NCBI GenBank assembly: GCA_944391695.1
Contig: CALXUO010000049.1
Span: 127-64,126, forward strand
Reading direction: 5' to 3'
DNA: 64,000 bases
Origin: an uncultured Alphaproteobacteria bacterium
GTDB lineage: Bacteria; Pseudomonadota; Alphaproteobacteria; RF32; CAG-239
Translations under genes and position numbers: made by a program
Notes under the pieces: model-generated
What the model saw: only the letters and a program-made list of their open reading frames with translations
Database searches by the model: none
Told to the model about the DNA's origin: nothing
Shown here: positions 10,657 through 59,646 of the stretch, piece by piece
How positions within the stretch are numbered: the first letter of the stretch is position 1
Layout: every line of letters begins with the position of its first letter

Positions 10657-11628
10657 ATGGAAGAAATTATTTTCCCCAACCAGATACGTATGTACCGCCG
10701 CTTGAGAGGGCGCTCCATGCAAGAGCTGGCCGATCATCTCGGTGTCTCCTTGTCTGCCATATCCAAAATTGAAAAAGGATATCGCCGCGTTGATCAGGAA
10801 CAGTTGGTCAGGGTGGCTGAATTTCTTGATTGCCCTCTACAAGAGTTGTTCGTAAATGAGCAAAACTCCCAACAGGAAATCGTCTTGGCTTGGCGCAGAG
10901 AGCAAGAACGCCGAAATAAAATTAATGAAAAAAGCGGTTTGAAAACTTTGGGTGCCGGGTTGCGGCAAATCCGCAATGAAAAAAACCTTACCTTGATTGA
11001 AGTGGCCGAAAGTGCCGATATGACCTTGTCGGTTTATCACAGAATCGAGATGGGGCAACGCGAGGTTTCCGACAAAGAGATGAAAAATATTGCCAAAGCT
11101 CTTAAATTGCCCGTCGATGAGCTCAAAGCTCAGATTAAAGATTTGGATGAGAAAGGTTTCTTGGAAGAAATTATTCAACGTAATGATGCTAAATATAAAT
11201 TGTTGTCTACTCCCCGAGGTGCTATTGCTTCTTTTGCCGGAATAAATATGGAAAATAATCAGATTTCCGTTTTCGGAACTGCCGGCAAAAACGGCGATGT
11301 AATTATTGATCCGGAAGAGGAAGTTAAGAAAGTTCCTTGCCCTACATCTCTTATAAATAAAAAAGATGCCTATGCGGTTAATCTTTGTACCCGCAGATTA
11401 GGAAATTTGTTGCCGGCCAGAGCTATATTGTTTGTTGATCCTCAGGAGCCTGTCAGCGTAGGAGATATTGCCGTTTACTATTCTTCCGAGGAAGAGGCTA
11501 AGATATTGTCCGTCAGAGAAGATGATATGGGGCAGCTTTATGGTGTTCGTTGGAATCCTGATGAAAAAATAAATTTGAGCGATAATGATTTGCAAAAAGT
11601 TCACCGCGTGGTCTTTATTAGTTTGTAA
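10657..11628 (+). CDS. XRE-family transcriptional regulator with two HTH domains and a LexA/CI-like C-terminal beta domain
   Basis: 323 aa. HTH 1 is 'IRMYRRLRGRSMQELADHLGVSLSAISKIEKGYRRV'. HTH 2 is 'LRQIRNEKNLTLIEVAESADMTLSVYHRIEMGQREV'. The C-terminus 'ARAILFVDPQEPVSVGDIAVYY...VHRVVFI' has the spacing of an S24-like fold but lacks a G-D-S-M type catalytic Ser motif. A GAGGTAA RBS lies upstream and a terminator follows. Confidence 0.7.
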   Translation: MEEIIFPNQIRMYRRLRGRSMQELADHLGVSLSAISKIEKGYRRVDQEQLVRVAEFLDCPLQELFVNEQNSQQEIVLAWRREQERRNKINEKSGLKTLGAGLRQIRNEKNLTLIEVAESADMTLSVYHRIEMGQREVSDKEMKNIAKALKLPVDELKAQIKDLDEKGFLEEIIQRNDAKYKLLSTPRGAIASFAGINMENNQISVFGTAGKNGDVIIDPEEEVKKVPCPTSLINKKDAYAVNLCTRRLGNLLPARAILFVDPQEPVSVGDIAVYYSSEEEAKILSVREDDMGQLYGVRWNPDEKINLSDNDLQKVHRVVFISL

Positions 11629-11668: not shown

Positions 11669-12352
11669 TTATAGCGGCGGAATATTAAGCTGGACTATTT
11701 CGCCGGGGCCTATTTTGCTGTTGGCATAACGCATATTGCCGGTTTCAATCATAAAACGCTGGCGGCCAGTCATTTGCGAGGCCAAATCATAAAAATCTTT
11801 GGCGCGCATATCTTGTCTTTGTGGATTCATAATATATAAAACACAGCCTTGCGCCCTTTCGGCAACGCCACAACGCGCGCGACCTCGCGGAACTTCGGCA
11901 TTGACAATAACCCCTTGCAAGCCGTTGCGCACAATCTTCGATTCTCCAAAAATAAATTTGCCGGCTACCATCCCTACAAACAAACTGACACTCAGTATTA
12001 AAAAGAAAACTTTCATCGTTAGCCAGTCAGGAAGACTTGAGACATAGCGGCTGCGACCATAGACTTCCTCTTCATATGCTTCTTCATCTATATATTGCGG
12101 CGATTGCGAGCTATTATCATTGGTGAGCCCTTGCCGTATTTCCGTGGAAGGAAGGTCTGCATCATCAAGATATCTGTCTATATCCGGTTTATCGTTTGCC
12201 GTTGCGGTATGAGACTTTCTCTCAGATTGATTATCAGTTTTAAACGGATTGGAATTTACTTCAACCCGTGATGCACTTTGCGGCGTTGAACGATTTATCG
12301 GACGCTTGATTTTTTTAAGTTGGGGATGTGTATTGCCTGACTGATTATCCAT
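11669..12352 (-). CDS. hypothetical single-pass membrane protein (last gene of the long minus-strand operon)
   Basis: 227 aa. A disordered N-terminal half is followed by the TM helix 'FFLILSVSLFVGMVAGKFIF' and a C-terminal domain of about 90 aa ('GVIVNAEVPRGRARCGVAERAQGCVLYI'). I recognise no family. Confidence 0.45.
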   Translation of the reverse strand: MDNQSGNTHPQLKKIKRPINRSTPQSASRVEVNSNPFKTDNQSERKSHTATANDKPDIDRYLDDADLPSTEIRQGLTNDNSSQSPQYIDEEAYEEEVYGRSRYVSSLPDWLTMKVFFLILSVSLFVGMVAGKFIFGESKIVRNGLQGVIVNAEVPRGRARCGVAERAQGCVLYIMNPQRQDMRAKDFYDLASQMTGRQRFMIETGNMRYANSKIGPGEIVQLNIPPL

Positions 12353-12371: not shown

Positions 12372-13646
12372 TTACAAATTATTTTCCAACACTTTGTCCG
12401 TCTTGGTGGTTTTTATAACCCGCGGAACCAACATAATAATGGCTTCGGACTGCGGAGATTTGGAAGCAAACGCTGTATTAGGCAAACCAATAATTAAAAA
12501 ATTTTCACCTAAACGATTATAAATTGAAAAGCTTGAAATCTCTCCGCCACGGCCCTCAATCGTAATATCAGAAAATATTTTACTGTTGCCCTCAAATGAT
12601 GCTTGGGTTAATATTGATAAATCTGCAAAAATGGATGAACGCGGTATACATTTACCAATATCAAAACGAGAATACCACAAATTTGGCACTACAAATTTGC
12701 CCTCTCCTGCTATTTCAACCCTGGCTTGTTGACTTAAAAAAGATGCTAGTGAATCAACATTGATATCATTGGAAGTTGTTAAAATCTTCCCTAATACGCC
12801 GTCTTTAGCGCTTTTTACAGAGCCAAAGCCAAACGCTCCTATAATCTGCTGCCATTCAATCCCTGAGGCATTATACGGATAAAGATTAAAAACTTTTACA
12901 TCATAGGCCAAAAGTAGAGGACTCTCTTCAAAATAATTTATCAGATTGACTATCTTGTTCTTGAGCTCAAAATCTGCATCAAACGTTATGGAATAATCAT
13001 CAAAATCCGGCGTAAAGTCTGTAATCCCGGAACCTCGCAAAACATCTAAAACTGCAAGCATAATGGTCTTGGAGCGCGGAATATAAAGACTGAAATTAGC
13101 TTTGCGGGAAATGCGCATCGTTTTGTTGGTCGAATTGTAGGTATAGTATATCTCGGCTGCATCTGTAATCATGGTTACCACTTCGGAAAAATCCCCTCGT
13201 AAGTTGTCCGCCGATATACTTGAATAGGGCGCGTCTTTAGCAACCAGCTTTATGCCGGCCTCTTTGGTCAGTTTTAACAATGCTTTTTCTGCCGGCATAG
13301 TTTCAAACGAAAGCCCATTCACTTCATAGCGCGGCAATGCATCGCTTTTACCGTTTCTTATCAGTTGAAACGCTTTTGTATTGTAGGGAATGGTTGATAT
13401 CATTTGCTGGGTGTCCCAGTTGACAAAACAGCGCAACGGAGTTTCCAAATCCAGCCTATTTGCCCCTTTGGGTGTCCTTATCTCTGGATATGCTTTCTTT
13501 TCAACCTTAGCCGTGTATACAGGGATTTGTGTTGTTGATGAGGATTCTCCTTTAATTTTTGATGTTAATGAATCAAAAATACCGCACGAGCTTAAAAGGC
13601 TTATGCTGGCAACTAGTATTATTTTTAAGCTTTGATGTGGTTTCAT
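12372..13646 (-). CDS. secretin-like outer-membrane lipoprotein (divergent and short)
   Basis: 424 aa with a lipoprotein signal 'ILVASISLLSSC'. 'AEIYYTYNSTNKTMRISRKANFSLYIP' parallels 'GVWWKYENKDIYFYKFITKTFVIYSLP' of the PilN-like secretin at 58042. 'LLAYDVKVFNLY' and the C-terminus 'ISSFSIYNRLGENFLIIGLPN...EAIIMLVPRVI' parallel the secretin motifs 'VSVKIMQVTV' and 'EVALASGESLILTGYEK...NILVIILTPVVL'. Confidence 0.45.
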   Translation of the reverse strand: MKPHQSLKIILVASISLLSSCGIFDSLTSKIKGESSSTTQIPVYTAKVEKKAYPEIRTPKGANRLDLETPLRCFVNWDTQQMISTIPYNTKAFQLIRNGKSDALPRYEVNGLSFETMPAEKALLKLTKEAGIKLVAKDAPYSSISADNLRGDFSEVVTMITDAAEIYYTYNSTNKTMRISRKANFSLYIPRSKTIMLAVLDVLRGSGITDFTPDFDDYSITFDADFELKNKIVNLINYFEESPLLLAYDVKVFNLYPYNASGIEWQQIIGAFGFGSVKSAKDGVLGKILTTSNDINVDSLASFLSQQARVEIAGEGKFVVPNLWYSRFDIGKCIPRSSIFADLSILTQASFEGNSKIFSDITIEGRGGEISSFSIYNRLGENFLIIGLPNTAFASKSPQSEAIIMLVPRVIKTTKTDKVLENNL

Positions 13647-13663
13647 TACCTATCCTTACTCCA

Positions 13664-14272
13664 TTAGTTCCCCGTTTGTGGATGCGGTTTCGGCTGTTGA
13701 CCACCCACTGATTGCGGTTGCGAAGGTTGGCGAGTGTTTGCCGCCGAATTTTGCGGCCGTGGCGGTGTAGTATTATCGGGCTTAAGCACTTGTTGAGGCT
13801 TTGTGTTATTGGCTTTCATCAACTTTTCTACCACTTCATCCATCGACATACCCGCCCCTATCGTGGGATCTTCAGACTTATCTATATCGCCTAATGCTGC
13901 TTTCATCTTGTTTAGCTCGTCTTTGTCTTGCTTTATCATCTCAGGTGAGGCATTATGCTCAAGCTCGGTCTTGAATTCTTGCAAATTTTTCTTCAGAGCA
14001 TTTATGCCGCCGGATACTTTCTTGTCAACATAATCATATAAGTCTGGATGCGAAACTATGTATTCTCCGGTTTCGGATATTTCCTCCAAAACATCTAAAA
14101 TATAGGCATAATGCTTGTATTCTTCCATTGCAATATTGCCACTACGAACACAACGTGCCGCAATACGGGAAATCGTCATATCATAGTATTCTTTAAGCAA
14201 AACATAATTGTCAACATACCAGGTGTCCCCTGCCATATTTTTGCCTGAGCTGAATGTCTTGTTTTGATCCAT
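13664..14272 (-). CDS. hypothetical soluble protein with a P/Q-rich C-terminal tail
   Basis: 202 aa with no signal peptide or TM helix. The C-terminus reads 'PPRPQNSAANTRQPSQPQSVGGQQPKPHPQ'. An AGGGAGAG RBS lies upstream. Confidence 0.45.
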   Translation of the reverse strand: MDQNKTFSSGKNMAGDTWYVDNYVLLKEYYDMTISRIAARCVRSGNIAMEEYKHYAYILDVLEEISETGEYIVSHPDLYDYVDKKVSGGINALKKNLQEFKTELEHNASPEMIKQDKDELNKMKAALGDIDKSEDPTIGAGMSMDEVVEKLMKANNTKPQQVLKPDNTTPPRPQNSAANTRQPSQPQSVGGQQPKPHPQTGN

Positions 14273-14347: not shown

Positions 14348-16669
14348 TTAATCTTTTAGAACACTATTTTGATAAGGGTCCACAAAATCATTGTCATCTG
14401 TATTATCAAATATATGAAATCTGTCGGAAATTTCTAACGGCGCCGTTTGATAAATCGGCGGATTGTCATCAACTACCTTTTCTTGACCGTATAAGTCACT
14501 GCTGCAAATATAGCTGTTGTCGCCTATTGCTTCCATATACGGTATCTCTTCTTGTTCATCATTAACATATACCCATTCCCAATCCTCATCCGCATTATCA
14601 TTGCTATTATCCGTAGGTGCCTCAGGTTTTTCTGGAACAGGACTAAAACCCCAATCCTCGCCGCTTGATGATATGGAAGAATCTTGGGCAATATCCGATG
14701 TTTCTTCAGATGTTTCTTCGCCACTCATTGATTGCTCTTCTTGTAAAATATTCTCTGCTTTGTCCTCAGAGGACAAAATATCATCAACTTTATTGGTCTT
14801 AAACGGAGATGGCGAATCCGACTTTGCTTCTTCTTGAGACGATAGCTCAGCAGAAATTGTTTCCTCAACGGGGCTGATTTCTTCTTCTAAAAATTTTGGC
14901 TGCGGCATCTCTGAAATAATATCATCCAGTGGTACAGTATCTTCTTTGCTTTCTGACACCAAATTATTTACAATTTCGTCTGTTTGTTTTTTCTTCTTCT
15001 TTTTTTTCTTTTTCTTTTTGACAGGCGCTTCCGCTTCTGAAAAATTATCTGTCGCAACTATTTCATTTATCTTTGCCGGTGTTGATGTTTCTTCTTCTGT
15101 TTCCCGAGGGATAAAATTATCAACGGTTTCACTTATGTTTTCCTCATTAACAATCTCCGAATTATAATTAGCACTTTCATAACTGTCTTCTGCCACATTA
15201 TTTAACGAGGCCTCATCCGTAATAAATTCTGACCGATTTTGATTATAAACGGGCGGTGCTACATTATAAACCGGTAAGCTTATTTCTTTAAGACTTTGTG
15301 CAAATATTTCTGCCAATTCTTTGGTTTGACGAGCACTTATCCTATCATAGAGCTTGCTTTGCTCTTTTATGGCTTTGGATATGGCTTTCTCAAGATTTTG
15401 ATCATTGGCTGCTTGCAAAGCTGATATTTTGTCAACCAATAACAATATCTGCGCTGAATTATCCGTTGTATTGATTTGAATATTGTTGGCATTATTGTTG
15501 GCTTGCGATGTGTTGTTTTGTTGAATGTTGGCTGATAATACCGCTTGTACCAATTTTTCTTGCGAATCGCCTATCAGTTTTAGTAATTTTTCGTCATTGG
15601 CCTCAAATCTTGAAACATTTGATGTGCCGATATTGATATTGCTTAAGCTTTTTATTACCTCTGTTTGTGATTTTTCAAACGCGGCAATAAGCTCTTTATT
15701 ATCGTTGGCCCTGCTTAATGATGTTGCTTCAACTTTATCAAGGCGTAAGTTTAGCTGCTTTTGCCCCTCTAAAACAACTTCTATCAGTTTTTGTGCAACG
15801 GTATCATTTGACGCTACATTATCAGAAGAGAGGGATTTTGATGGAAATGCTTGCGCAAAAGCTGCCAACGAAGCATTTATGGAATTTTGGCTTTGAGCAA
15901 TGGTTTGACATAATGCGCTGATTTCTTGATGCTGCTCTTCGCGCTCAATGCGATAATTTTCGGTTATGGTTTGGCATATATTTTTTAGCTCTCTGCTTTG
16001 CAAAACTGCTCCTATTTTGCTGCTGTCAGCTATTGTCTTACACAACGTGTTAATTTCTTGCCGTTGATCTTCGCGATTTTTTTCCATGCTTTGAGCCAGA
16101 TAAAGCTGAACTTTGCTTAAATCGGCCGTTAGTTTATCTAATCCTTCTTTTTGTGTGTTTGTTTGCTCTTCGATTAATCCGCCTATAATTTTGGCAAATT
16201 CGGCAGCAAAATCTTTATCTAAGCTAAGTTTGGACGGAGCTGCAACAACACCTACTCCATTGGCTCCGGAAAAAGCTTGCGGCTGGGGTTGTACCTGTAC
16301 TTGCGGCTGTGCCTGCGCTTGCGCTTTGGCCAATGCTGTTGCTAATATTTGAGCCTGTTGATGCGCCTCTTCGCTCATCTTGGGAGATGTTGTCGTGGTA
16401 TGAACAGATCTTTGGACACCACTTTTTTCAGCTAACTCATCGGCATAATCTTGAAGCATTGCCCCACCAGGAAGCGAGGAAAAAAGCCCCCTTATCTCTG
16501 GCGACAACTCCAATAGCATCTTATTGAAGCCTTCTTTGCGCTCCGGACTTAGGATGTGCATTTGGCGATAGATATTTAAAAACCTTTGCGCCACAACGAC
16601 TGGATCTTCTTCGCCGTTGCGCAAGGCTTTTCTGCGTGCTTCTGTTGTTTTATCCGATTCTAACGCCAT
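14348..16669 (-). CDS. hypothetical large acidic coiled-coil protein (no signal peptide)
   Basis: 773 aa. It contains an internal duplicated segment ('REDQRQEINTLCKTIADS' and 'REEQHQEISALCQTIAQS'), an 11-Lys run, and a very acidic D/E/S-rich C-terminal third. I see no Walker A motif. It lies immediately downstream of virB11. Confidence 0.5.
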   Translation of the reverse strand: MALESDKTTEARRKALRNGEEDPVVVAQRFLNIYRQMHILSPERKEGFNKMLLELSPEIRGLFSSLPGGAMLQDYADELAEKSGVQRSVHTTTTSPKMSEEAHQQAQILATALAKAQAQAQPQVQVQPQPQAFSGANGVGVVAAPSKLSLDKDFAAEFAKIIGGLIEEQTNTQKEGLDKLTADLSKVQLYLAQSMEKNREDQRQEINTLCKTIADSSKIGAVLQSRELKNICQTITENYRIEREEQHQEISALCQTIAQSQNSINASLAAFAQAFPSKSLSSDNVASNDTVAQKLIEVVLEGQKQLNLRLDKVEATSLSRANDNKELIAAFEKSQTEVIKSLSNINIGTSNVSRFEANDEKLLKLIGDSQEKLVQAVLSANIQQNNTSQANNNANNIQINTTDNSAQILLLVDKISALQAANDQNLEKAISKAIKEQSKLYDRISARQTKELAEIFAQSLKEISLPVYNVAPPVYNQNRSEFITDEASLNNVAEDSYESANYNSEIVNEENISETVDNFIPRETEEETSTPAKINEIVATDNFSEAEAPVKKKKKKKKKKKQTDEIVNNLVSESKEDTVPLDDIISEMPQPKFLEEEISPVEETISAELSSQEEAKSDSPSPFKTNKVDDILSSEDKAENILQEEQSMSGEETSEETSDIAQDSSISSSGEDWGFSPVPEKPEAPTDNSNDNADEDWEWVYVNDEQEEIPYMEAIGDNSYICSSDLYGQEKVVDDNPPIYQTAPLEISDRFHIFDNTDDNDFVDPYQNSVLKD
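14987..15019 (-). repeat. poly-lysine tract (11 K) encoded by a pure pyrimidine run on the + strand
   Basis: The + strand reads ttttcttcttcttttttttctttttcttttt and includes a T8 homopolymer at 15000-15007. It encodes 'KKKKKKKKKKK'. Confidence 0.85.
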
Positions 16670-28505: not shown

Positions 28506-28694
28506 CTATATCGTTGCGACAAACCAATCAGGCAGAGTCTTCGGCAACTCTACCTCCATACAGGCGCACGGCGATAATTTAAGCTCATCGTTGCCGGAAC
28601 CTATACCTATAGGCTCAGGCTCGTAATAAGAACCATAGCAGCCCGATAACACAAATAAAACAAACAGAATCAATATTTTACATCTTGTTTTCAT
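28506..28694 (-). CDS. virB7: VirB7-like small lipoprotein
   Basis: I trimmed the ORF to the ATG at 28694 (AGGAGG upstream). It is 62 aa, with 'MKTRCKILILFVLFVLSGC' carrying an LSGC lipobox. It sits between two virB8 paralogs and upstream of virB9, as rvhB7 does in Rickettsiales. Confidence 0.6.
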   Translation of the reverse strand: MKTRCKILILFVLFVLSGCYGSYYEPEPIGIGSGNDELKLSPCACMEVELPKTLPDWFVATI

Positions 28695-28799
28695 GAGAAA
28701 CAACCCTCCTTAAGGGGTTAATATATAGCACTATAGATAGTATGAAATTATACCGTTTTATTTTAAATGTCTAACAGCTTAGATATACTTATCAACAAA

Positions 28800-57314: not shown

Positions 57315-58061
57315 ATGATGAAAAATTCTATTCAAAGGATTGCAAAAATGAACTTAAGAAAAATATACGGAGTATCTTTGCTGTGTTTTCTACTTGTTGG
57401 ATGCGGCAAACATTATACTTTGTGGGGTACGTCGGATGATACAAATGCAACAGGAGCGGAAGAAATTTCTTATGTTCAAGAAACTCAGGTAGTGCCGGTA
57501 ATTGTTCCACCGGAGCAGATGGCTCAGTCTTATGACAATTTTGTTCAATACCGCACAGGCGCGGCGGATTATCGCGAGTTTGGCGAAAGGACACCTCAGG
57601 ATCAATATATAATTACCAACGGTGCCGGGAGCAATATGTCGGCGGCAATTCCACCAACGATAGATGAAGAGGTTACAGATTATGAAATTGCTGTGAGCGA
57701 AGCTTTCAGCGAAGCTGTTGCGGAAAGCGGCAATGGTGAAGGCGCCAGCACTAGCAGCAATAGTAATGAAACCATAGATTCAGAAGATGATGCCGTGGAA
57801 GATTGGTTGGCCGAAGAAGGAAACACCTTAAAAGGGCTTTTGTCTGAGTGGAGCGATAGGGCTGGCTGGAGATTGGTTTGGAACTCGAACCGGAATTATA
57901 CTTTGGGCGCTGGAGCTATGTTCAGAGGAAGATTTGCTGATGTTGCTTCAGCTTTGATACGTAATTTTGCCAGAGCGCAGCCTGCGCCGATGGCCACATT
58001 TTATAAAGGCAACCGAGTATTAGTTGTTGAAACGAGGGAGGATGAGAATGCGTATAACTAA
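57315..58061 (+). CDS. pilL: PilL-like type IVb pilus lipoprotein (TcpQ-like C-terminal domain)
   Basis: Lipoprotein signal 'VSLLCFLLVGC'. The C-terminus 'GNTLKGLLSEWSDRAGWRLVWNSNRNYTLGAGAMFRGRFADVASALIRNF' fits the PilL/TcpQ domain pattern. The gene lies directly upstream of the secretin gene. The start could instead be 57348. Confidence 0.55.
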   Translation: MMKNSIQRIAKMNLRKIYGVSLLCFLLVGCGKHYTLWGTSDDTNATGAEEISYVQETQVVPVIVPPEQMAQSYDNFVQYRTGAADYREFGERTPQDQYIITNGAGSNMSAAIPPTIDEEVTDYEIAVSEAFSEAVAESGNGEGASTSSNSNETIDSEDDAVEDWLAEEGNTLKGLLSEWSDRAGWRLVWNSNRNYTLGAGAMFRGRFADVASALIRNFARAQPAPMATFYKGNRVLVVETREDENAYN

Positions 58062-59646
58062 CTGGAAAAAAATCGGATTTGGCTTTTGCGCTCTTGCTTT
58101 TGCCGCTTCTTGCTCTATTTCAACAACGATGGACGCCTCGTTGGAAAAGGATGTCGACGCAGCGACAAAGCTACGCGAGGATGCAAAAATTCCGACCAAG
58201 GTGGCTAATCAAGATTTGGTAAAAGTTAAAGATGATATTTGGCTTGGAGATACCAGCAAAATAGAATATGAGGGAGAGCCTTTGCCGTCTTATCTGGAAG
58301 CAACCGACGGCATAACCTTGGTATCTAATCGCCCAATATCGCTTTATGAAATCGGCGACATGATTAACCGTACGACTGGATTGGGGGTTCGTTATGCCTC
58401 GGATTTGGAGGCAGATATCAGAGCCAAAGGTGAAAGCAACCGCCCGGGGGTTACGGCTCAAGTCGGCGATTGGGCTTCTCCGGATACGATGATGGTTTCT
58501 TATCAAGGGCCTTTGAGTAGCTTTTTGGATGAGGTATCTTCGCGTTTTGGTGTTTGGTGGAAATATGAAAATAAAGATATTTATTTTTATAAATTCATAA
58601 CTAAAACTTTTGTAATATATTCGCTGCCGACAAAGCCAAGTATGAATGTAAATATCGGTGGAAGCGCATCAGGTGGCGGAGCTTCGTCGGCTATTAGCTT
58701 GACTTCTTCGATTGATGTTGAGATGTGGGCGCAATTTGAGGCAACTATTACATCAATGATAAGCGAGGGAGCAAAGCTTACGGTATCTCCTGCGGACGGC
58801 ACGATTACACTAACGGCTACACCTAATGATATTAAATTGGTGGCTAAATATATTAATGAGCAAAACGTTCGTCTTTCAAGACAGGTTGCCATTTCGGTTA
58901 AGATTATGCAGGTTACCGTGGGGGATAGTGACAAATATGGCTTAGATCTTAAAGCGACGTTTAATGATGGCGTAAGCTCTATCGGTATTACCGGAACACA
59001 AGGTATTTCATCGGAAGATTTATCAAGCTCTTTAACTTGGGGAATTATAAAAAACAACTGGTCAGCCGATGCAATTATGCAGGCTATTTCTGAAAAGAAT
59101 CGCTCTTCATTGATAACCAGCGGCACGATTACCACTTTGAACAACAAACCGGCGCCGATTCAAGTTACTCAGAAGCAGAACTATATTTCTGAGATGACTA
59201 AGACCAATAACGGTACCGATGGTACAAACTACGATATATCGGTTACGACAGAAGAAATTGAGACCGGATTTACGCTTGATGTTTTGCCCCGTATTTTGGA
59301 GCATGGTAGAATGTTGGTAATGTTTAACATGACTTTATCTGATCTGTTGTCTTTGGAAAAAGTTTCTTTTGGTAACGATGATGAGAATCAATATATTCAA
59401 AATCCGATTATTGAATCCAGAGCCTTTACGCAAGAAGTTGCCTTGGCATCTGGGGAATCGTTAATTCTTACTGGTTATGAAAAAGTTTCATCGGAAACAG
59501 ACAAAACTGGTACGGGATCTGCAGATAATTCTTTGCTGGGCGGATCGGCCTCGGCCAGCAAAGATCGTAACATTTTGGTTATTATATTGACACCGGTTGT
59601 CTTGGAAACTCCTTTGTCGCCTGAAACCAGAATGAGTATGAATTAA
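58042..59646 (+). CDS. pilN: PilN-like type IVb pilus secretin lipoprotein
   Basis: ATG at 58042 follows GAGGGAGG. The lipobox is 'ALAFAASC'. The N0-like region reads 'GVWWKYENKDIYFYKFITKTFVIYSLP'. The secretin domain includes 'VAISVKIMQVTVGDSDKYGLDL', 'LNNKPAPIQVTQ', 'TGFTLDVLPRIL', 'GESLILTGYEK' and 'ILVIILTPVVLE'. Confidence 0.8.
   Translation: MRMRITNWKKIGFGFCALAFAASCSISTTMDASLEKDVDAATKLREDAKIPTKVANQDLVKVKDDIWLGDTSKIEYEGEPLPSYLEATDGITLVSNRPISLYEIGDMINRTTGLGVRYASDLEADIRAKGESNRPGVTAQVGDWASPDTMMVSYQGPLSSFLDEVSSRFGVWWKYENKDIYFYKFITKTFVIYSLPTKPSMNVNIGGSASGGGASSAISLTSSIDVEMWAQFEATITSMISEGAKLTVSPADGTITLTATPNDIKLVAKYINEQNVRLSRQVAISVKIMQVTVGDSDKYGLDLKATFNDGVSSIGITGTQGISSEDLSSSLTWGIIKNNWSADAIMQAISEKNRSSLITSGTITTLNNKPAPIQVTQKQNYISEMTKTNNGTDGTNYDISVTTEEIETGFTLDVLPRILEHGRMLVMFNMTLSDLLSLEKVSFGNDDENQYIQNPIIESRAFTQEVALASGESLILTGYEKVSSETDKTGTGSADNSLLGGSASASKDRNILVIILTPVVLETPLSPETRMSMN

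Follow-up and report, generated by a model that had tools for sequence, protein, structure and literature searches.

A lipoprotein gene located at positions 12372-13646 (minus strand) of the window, the 64,000-nucleotide stretch of an uncultured Alphaproteobacteria bacterium analysed here, encodes what profile comparison and structure prediction identify as a true secretin homologue, designated the mini-secretin in this study. The protein represents a monophyletic and hitherto undescribed group within the secretin superfamily, and its gene lies within a locus for a VirB-type type IV secretion system (T4SS). Secretins are regarded as providing the passage across the outer membrane for type II and type III secretion systems, type IV pili and filamentous phage, whereas T4SSs are generally considered to cross it via VirB7, VirB9 and VirB10 alone, borrowing at most an N0 domain. 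What is new here is a secretin-superfamily branch with both a new architecture and a new genomic context. The mini-secretin may form an ungated, lipid-tethered ring serving the neighbouring T4SS, a reading to which we give a probability of about 0.5.

Secretin homology and architecture of the mini-secretin

The open reading frame is intact and encodes a gate-less lipoprotein of 424 amino acids (aa; protein P0001). Curated models are blind to it: neither Pfam (E ≤ 10), NCBIfam (E ≤ 0.01) nor PHROGs (E ≤ 1) gave a match, and no sequence in the PDB was matched by phmmer or hmmsearch with the mini-secretin itself or with two family profiles. The protein had first been singled out by motifs common to it and to a secretin encoded elsewhere in the window, placed at 58042 by the original prediction. 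That comparator, encoded at 58024-59646 (plus strand), is indeed a bona fide PilN-type secretin (PF00263, E 7e-15; TIGR02520 PilN, 280 bits). Direct comparison of the two proteins by BLASTP gave a best E-value of 0.76, which is no better than chance, so that the motif resemblance alone is no proof of homology.

Several more sensitive approaches agree on the assignment. A phmmer search of 1.8 billion cluster representatives matched 149 proteins, the nearer of which (380-470 aa) are members of the mini-secretin family. The more distant ones (460-860 aa; E 3e-12 to 1e-3) aligned to approximately residues 91-335 of the query, and nine of the ten that were scanned contain PF00263, some of them together with STN, Secretin_N or a fused TcpQ domain. 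An alignment of 43 family sequences (24-81% identity) was then compared by hhalign with an alignment of 23 secretins including the PilN of the window, giving a probability of 99.95% and an E-value of 1.3e-38 over residues 83-418; as the secretin set was drawn from the query's own matches, the score cannot count as independent evidence for the N-terminal part, but the aligned span extends well past the region that had recruited them. The AlphaFold2 monomer model (mean pLDDT 87.9, pTM 0.77) retrieved 36 PDB matches by Foldseek at E ≤ 1e-3, all of which are secretins, with BfpB at the top (9u5s_A, E 1.1e-9), followed by PilQ, InvG, GspD, XcpQ and pIV; weaker matches comprised isolated N0-N1 crystal structures (XcpQ, GspD and EscC) and DotD.

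These results bear out the proposal of a secretin-like lipoprotein with lipobox LSSC, for which the reading frame, phmmer, hhalign and Foldseek all speak. The three motif classes said to recur in the same order in PilN fall in homologous columns of the profile alignment, where KANFSLYIP of the mini-secretin pairs with TKTFVIYSLP of the secretins, AYDVKVFNLY with AISVKIMQVT, and GENFLIIG...IIMLVPRVI with GESLILTG...LVIILTPVVL. Regarding the checks that had been suggested, structure prediction gave the outcome expected of a secretin, whereas the secretin and PilN models (PF00263 among them) did not match the mini-secretin directly and the relationship emerged from profile-profile alignment.

The architecture could be delineated along most of the chain. 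A signal peptide with lipobox LLSS/C (aa 1-21; 13584-13646, minus strand) was read from the sequence and found by a lipobox scan, and Cys21, which is invariant in a 26-sequence alignment of the close family, is the presumed acylated residue. It is followed by a linker modelled with low confidence (aa 22-55) and a conserved pre-N0 segment with an invariant Cys73 (aa 56-107), which together occupy 13326-13583 (minus strand) and were delimited by pLDDT, secondary structure and invariant columns. The N0 (STN-like) domain (aa 108-188; 13083-13325, minus strand) shows the beta-alpha-beta-beta-alpha-beta-beta-beta pattern in the model, is recovered by Foldseek, and is matched by Pfam STN in four of the 43 family members (best E 2.9e-4). 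Two ring-building domains similar to secretin N1/N3 (aa 189-241 and 244-305; 12732-13082, minus strand) are both beta-alpha-beta-beta-alpha in the model and align by hhalign to the N-domains of PilN-type secretins, and a single member of the 43 gave a Secretin_N match (E 0.025). The reduced secretin core (aa 308-415; 12402-12725, minus strand), defined by hhalign and by anchor-to-anchor lengths, is beta-rich, keeps the conserved strands and closes with the secretin-style GENFLIIG ... IIMLVPRVIKT. Both Cys73 and Cys333, the latter in the core, are invariant in all 43 sequences down to 24% identity, which suggests a disulfide that would staple the N-terminal segment to the beta-core. A scan for promoters and terminators detected no signal above shuffled background.

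The N0 and ring-building domains of a secretin are accordingly recognizable, whereas recognition by PF00263, the two channel-closing gate regions (the inner-barrel hairpin GATE1 and the loop GATE2) and the region of the amphipathic helical loop (AHL) are not found in their usual form. GATE1 is the physical barrier across the secretin lumen and is buttressed by GATE2, and AHL, which of all secretin motifs is the best conserved, was suggested to have a key part in associating with the membrane and inserting into it (PMC6155069). Residues were counted between conserved anchor columns in the 43 family members and the 23 secretins. The segment after the 'vG..(I/V)P' motif (GATE1 region) has a median of 11 residues in the family (range 9-11) compared to 33 in secretins (31-80), the segment before the 'GE....G' strand (GATE2 region) 15 (15-16) compared to 33 (33-37), and the segment between 'G(G)L' and the last strand (AHL region) 13 (7-20) compared to 32 (25-35). 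The four retained strands have practically the same medians in both groups (9/9, 10/10, 6/6 and 6/7 for family and secretins, respectively). All family members are thus shortened by approximately 20 residues in each of the three regions: in the mini-secretin, an 11-residue segment around the invariant Cys333 replaces GATE1, the GATE2 region has half its usual length and the AHL region is down to LPNTAF. The order and spacing match those of InvG, in which GATE1 (~384-411) is separated by a spacer of ~20 residues from GATE2 (430-451) and AHL precedes the last strand. This uniform shortening explains why PF00263 at E ≤ 1 detects none of the 43 members and why a whole-genome search with it yields PilN only.

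Shortened gate and AHL regions make a conventional gated, self-inserting pore unlikely. The original prediction had offered a second outer-membrane channel for the T4SS as one explanation; the channel is doubtful for this reason, and what stands is that the T4SS locus contains a secretin homologue. A functional secretin channel of the conventional kind in the outer membrane, acting as an additional PilN for either the neighbouring type IVb pilus or a T4SS pilus, would fit the overall secretin fold, the position of BfpB as the closest solved relative and the presence of a pilL-N-O-P-Q cluster in the same window. It is nevertheless very improbable and largely refuted, considering that the three regions are shortened in 43 of 43 members, that PF00263 recognizes none of them, that the family occurs in six complete genomes without PilO and that the pilus cluster already has an intact PilN of its own.

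Among characterized proteins, the lipoprotein secretins of type IVb pili (BfpB of enteropathogenic Escherichia coli, 9u5s; PilN of R64, TIGR02520; TcpC; and MshL-like proteins, TIGR02519) are the most similar, sharing with the mini-secretin a lipobox, a linker, N0, one or more ring-building domains and a C-terminal core, and likewise lacking an S domain. BfpB, the closest solved relative by Foldseek, has a 'lipidation-BfpG-binding' (LG) domain between lipid anchor and N0, by which the anchor is returned to the level of the outer membrane (PMC12531336); the segment aa 22-107 has the same position and may be its equivalent. Unlike these proteins, the mini-secretin has the three shortened regions, matches none of TIGR02520, TIGR02519 and PF00263, and carries two ring-building domains instead of the single N3 of BfpB. 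Its gene also differs in context: no TcpQ/BfpG/PilL-type partner, PilO or ATPase adjoins it, the neighbours being three genes named here u773, u202 and u227, and the family is kept in genomes lacking PilO.

Conservation of the family and its nearest gated relatives

A word-indexed search recovered 909 family proteins at E ≤ 1e-3. All those with a name are annotated as 'hypothetical protein' and come from Alphaproteobacteria metagenome-assembled genomes from gut, rumen, digester or sediment. Copies are carried by 65 species-level genomes with 52-81% identity and intact reading frames, and scores of residues are invariant in the 26-sequence alignment of the close family. When 31 gated relatives were included in a tree, all family members grouped in one clade (support 100/100) on a long branch. 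Intact frames, invariant residues and monophyly imply that the gene is not decaying.

A decaying, functionless remnant of a pilus secretin gene, in line with the 'displaced remnant of a pilus system' that the original prediction had entertained, would account for a protein that does not reach the length of any normal secretin and escapes the curated models. The conservation data refute this explanation, leaving it with practically no probability: frames are intact not only in the 65 species but also in 26 genomes of 14 labelled families, sequence identity and invariant positions are maintained across the 65 loci, indel lengths are fixed across the family, the predicted fold is confident, and the gene is tightly coupled to conserved neighbours. 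The monophyly of the family and its occurrence in the six complete genomes without PilO also contradict the idea of a displaced pilus gene.

Sequence comparison by phmmer showed that the nearest gated relatives of the family include secretins encoded directly after virB9. Five such lipoprotein secretins of 466-662 aa were found in other Alphaproteobacteria, at loci L078, L079 (protein P0227), L080, L087 and L090 (P0231); P0227 and P0231 match PF00263 and are both part of the 23-sequence secretin alignment. Loci L078 (4984-19525) and L079 (741-15328) contain virB8, virB9, the lipoprotein secretin, a T2SSE-type ATPase and genes for proteins of 408 and 289 aa, followed on the same strand by three prepilin-like genes, virB10 and virB11. 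At L080 (39-14030), virB11 and virB10 are downstream on the opposite strand, and L090 (101-6142), on a 6.6-kb contig, comprises only virB8, virB9, the secretin, a gene for a 152-aa protein and the ATPase. L087 (946-7648) encodes a gated secretin of 466 aa after virB3-B4-B7-B8-B9, and it is for this protein that the gate and AHL regions were read residue by residue. The T2SSE ATPase follows the secretin in four of the five loci. These proteins resemble the mini-secretin in being lipoprotein secretins encoded in VirB operons, but they are full-length and mostly have a T2SSE ATPase next to them. No paper on virB9-linked secretins was found, although no literature search was aimed at that arrangement.

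Other relatives are located in ordinary pilus clusters, and the nearest sequence relatives of the family score best with MshL and PilN models; the contigs of three proteins (P0146, P0142 and P0140) were too short to provide a usable gene context. The virB9-linked secretins constitute a clade of their own (98/94), separate from the mini-secretin family. As the tree backbone is not resolved and leaves the sister relation open, descent of the family from the virB9-linked secretins, or the reverse, cannot be claimed. The existence of secretins inside VirB operons of related bacteria lends plausibility to a T4SS role of the cut-down family and suggests, without showing, where it may have originated.

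The five-gene module and its association with type IV secretion

The mini-secretin gene is co-directional with, and downstream of, virB8a, a gene for a 65-aa lipoprotein, virB8b, virB9 (with an additional SPOR domain), and genes for a 1099-aa beta-flower protein, a 1681-aa VirB10 and virB11. Only u773 and u202 lie between virB11 and the mini-secretin gene, which is followed by u227 and then by a divergent gene for a protein with two helix-turn-helix domains (double-HTH) and four VirB6-like genes. The placement inside a T4SS operon reported by the original prediction is therefore correct, and it holds in all 65 related species: the block u773-u202-mini-secretin-u227 lies within a T4SS locus in 65 of 65, with its neighbours kept wherever the contig allows. 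Two arrangements were observed. One is that of the window (virB10-virB11-block, the HTH gene on the other strand, VirB6 genes), and in the other the order VirB6 genes-HTH-block is convergent with virB11-virB10-virB9. The two gene orders indicate that the block survives rearrangement while staying within the T4SS island.

The gene u227 (11669-12352, minus strand; 64 of 65 loci), located 19 nt downstream of the mini-secretin, encodes a bitopic protein of 227 aa with a disordered N-terminus, one transmembrane helix (aa 109-135) and a C-terminal domain of ~90 aa containing two conserved Cys. Among the best 120 of its 715 homologues, this small, presumably periplasmic domain (11669-11938, minus strand) is 80-99% identical, which makes it more conserved than the mini-secretin and second in the locus only to VirB11 (83-98%). 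AlphaFold2 predicts the domain with pLDDT 86-96 and a beta-alpha-alpha-beta order; no profile match in PDB sequences, no significant Foldseek match and, in 13 members, no Pfam match was obtained. A LysM-like wall-binding domain was considered because of this order and a few LysM proteins found at a probability of ≤ 0.25, but was dropped since no sequence model agrees, and an HR domain of the GspC/PilP type was considered and found unsupported.

On the upstream side, u202 (13664-14272, minus strand; 64 of 65 loci), 17 nt from the mini-secretin, encodes a 202-aa protein, and u773 (14348-16669, minus strand; 58 of 65 loci) an acidic, low-complexity, helical protein of 773 aa; neither has a signal peptide. 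The N-terminal domain of u773 (~60 aa) is conserved in distant modules according to BLAST, and the rest of the protein is 25-58% identical between species. A run of 12 lysines (AAA/AAG codons) lies within its long acidic low-complexity region. The u773 gene occupies the usual place of virD4 after virB11; two VirD4-like coupling-protein genes were found outside the window, on contigs of the same genome (C53:11461-13080 and C23:30035-31300), and none in the T4SS locus. The double-HTH regulator (Xre-type; 10657-11628, plus strand; Pfam HTH_3 twice) is present in 55 of the 65 loci.

The 65-aa lipoprotein between the two virB8 genes (MKTRCKILILFVLFVLSGC...; 28506-28703, minus strand) is likely to be the canonical VirB7. 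In the rvh locus of Rickettsia, rvhB7 has the corresponding position. The lipoprotein matched the reading frame between virB4 and virB8 in L087 with 39% identity. The possibility that the mini-secretin itself is the VirB7 of this T4SS was set aside, considering that the canonical small lipoprotein sits between the virB8 genes.

More distant family members reveal which part of this locus belongs together. At L066 (25% identity), the order is VirB6-like, HTH, a 192-aa protein, a 405-aa protein, mini-secretin and a 227-aa protein. Full-length homologues of the double-HTH protein (30-44% identity) adjoin the module in L066, L071 and L073, segments homologous to u202 occur in the upstream proteins of distant modules, and by BLAST the HTH protein, the N-terminal domain of u773, u202 and the C-terminal domain of u227 are homologous across modules. 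Such homologous neighbours across deep relatives indicate that the conserved unit is a five-gene module, which some lineages, among them the entire gut clade, have in a T4SS locus. The view of the gene as a single recruit to the T4SS needs to be modified in this respect, as it belongs to a module that in some deeper lineages is located away from T4SS genes. Pfam and NCBIfam scans found neither an ATPase nor any other energy source encoded in the module.

The association was also analysed at the level of whole genomes, using 401 genomes spread evenly over the class Alphaproteobacteria. Full-length family members were detected in 26 of them, belonging to 14 families as labelled and all 0.9-2.5 Mb in size. 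VirB10 (PF03743) was present in 22 of the 26, including all 17 that are at least 90% complete, and VirB4 in three of the remaining four, so that a VirB-type T4SS, usually with a giant VirB10, accompanies the family in 25 of 26 genomes; by comparison, VirB10 was found in 110 of the 375 family-negative genomes. Among the genomes listed individually, VirB10 frames of 1280-2838 aa occurred only in family-positive ones. The other family-positive genomes listed have frames of 669-843 aa (one family-positive genome is outside this list), and the family-negative genomes listed have frames of approximately 360-880 aa, apart from a few that are short and partial. PilO, used as marker of the type IVb pilus, was found in 19 of 28 genomes (the 26 together with G001 and G002) and was absent from six complete family-positive genomes. 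The family thus tracks the T4SS better than the pilus; as its carriers may be a single lineage, this supports a link with the T4SS but does not prove it.

Possible role of an ungated ring in the cell envelope

Our preferred reading, whose chances we put at roughly even, is that the mini-secretin is an accessory component of the neighbouring T4SS. The protein would oligomerise via its N-domains and beta-core into a ring that itself has no gate. As most of the AHL region is missing, this ring would more likely be a periplasmic or sub-membrane collar than a free-standing pore, and an open ring of secretin size would be tolerable only if filled or capped. The likeliest occupant might be those portions of the VirB-type T4SS that span the envelope, with the giant beta-flower VirB10, around which the ring would act as an accessory collar or sleeve; u227 may be an inner-membrane or periplasmic partner of the ring, as suggested by the tight gene coupling, and the double-HTH protein is a probable regulator of the module.

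The choice of the T4SS outer complex or giant VirB10 as occupant draws on analogy with two known lipoproteins. VirB7 of Xanthomonas citri (XAC2622), a lipoprotein of a type IVA secretion system, has a C-terminal N0 domain that forms an extra ring around the core complex (PMC3093366), and DotD of the Dot/Icm system is a lipoprotein with an N0 domain (PMC2951367). The statement that N0 domains in T4SSs are known only from DotD and TraK, as given with the original prediction, was incomplete with respect to this VirB7. Like both proteins, the mini-secretin is a putative outer-membrane lipoprotein with a secretin-type N0 encoded together with a T4SS, and the extra ring of the Xanthomonas VirB7 is the nearest precedent for the role proposed here. 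The differences are that VirB7 and DotD have N0 only, whereas the mini-secretin combines N0 with two ring-building domains and a secretin beta-core, that the window encodes a separate small VirB7-like lipoprotein, and that no VirB9-binding motif was recognized in the mini-secretin. In the literature on T4SSs, N0-domain precedents were the only ones found (Xanthomonas VirB7, DotD and mentions in reviews), with no subunit containing a secretin core.

Several observations weigh against the accessory role. The AlphaFold2 model is a monomer, so that ring formation and membrane topology are predictions, and the GATE1, GATE2 and AHL regions were assigned by alignment position and InvG-like spacing rather than from a solved structure of the mini-secretin. 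The module encodes a regulator of its own and two cytoplasmic proteins, for which a mere collar would have no obvious need. At L071 and L073 (27-31% identity), the order 'double-HTH, small protein, mini-secretin' is found among housekeeping genes (tatC, rbfA and recR), with no T4SS gene within 10 kb of the module; in the L071 genome, virB10 and virB4 are on contig C7, and the 21-kb locus of the module lacks any VirB gene. Neither VirB10 nor VirB4 was detected in G082 (78% complete) or in G002 (outside the 26 genomes, reached through a locus, completeness unknown). Finally, the carriers may all belong to one lineage, in which case co-occurrence with the T4SS could reflect shared ancestry rather than function.

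The main rival explanation is that the five-gene module is a self-contained envelope device, mechanistically unrelated to the T4SS. In that case, u227 and the ungated ring would together form a conduit or anchoring ring under double-HTH control, which might export or display the two acidic upstream proteins or tie the outer membrane to the cell wall, and which would have come to lie in the T4SS locus of the gut clade by co-regulation or chance. Such a device would agree with the preservation of regulator and gene order down to 25-30% identity, with the location among housekeeping genes in L071 and L073, and next to LolCE/LolD-like genes in the former, as well as with the two genomes without detected VirB10 or VirB4. 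We consider it less likely than the accessory role, since the block stays within the T4SS locus of all 65 species through rearrangement, every family-positive genome of at least 90% completeness has VirB10, the nearest gated relatives include secretins right after virB9, and the module has no energy source and its u773 and u202 proteins no signal peptide. At L071 (11262-13269), in a relative with a 0.9-Mb genome, the end of the mini-secretin gene shares sequence with the beginning of a gene for a MacB_PCD/FtsX permease, which is followed by a gene for an ATP-binding cassette ATPase; the two resemble the lipoprotein-sorting genes LolCE/LolD.

An extended form of the accessory reading is that a small-genome lineage of Alphaproteobacteria builds its VirB-type T4SS with a secretin-derived, lipid-tethered and permanently open ring with little of the AHL region, situated in the outer-membrane complex or as a sleeve of the giant VirB10, and descended from gated secretins encoded between virB9 and virB10. 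We put this forward only tentatively; if true, it would be the first type IVA system with a secretin architecture beyond a lone N0 domain.

At the least, the Pfam and NCBIfam secretin models tried here miss a family of several hundred protein clusters at 90% identity, which keeps the whole secretin scaffold and accompanies an atypical T4SS in bacteria that are common in gut and rumen but uncultured. Should the two be functionally linked, the parts list of T4SSs would change, and structural and biophysical work would gain a naturally 'gate-deleted' secretin. Considered along with the operons of related bacteria that combine virB9, a secretin, pilus genes and virB10, the family would also point to a connection in evolution that bridges type IV pili and type IV secretion.

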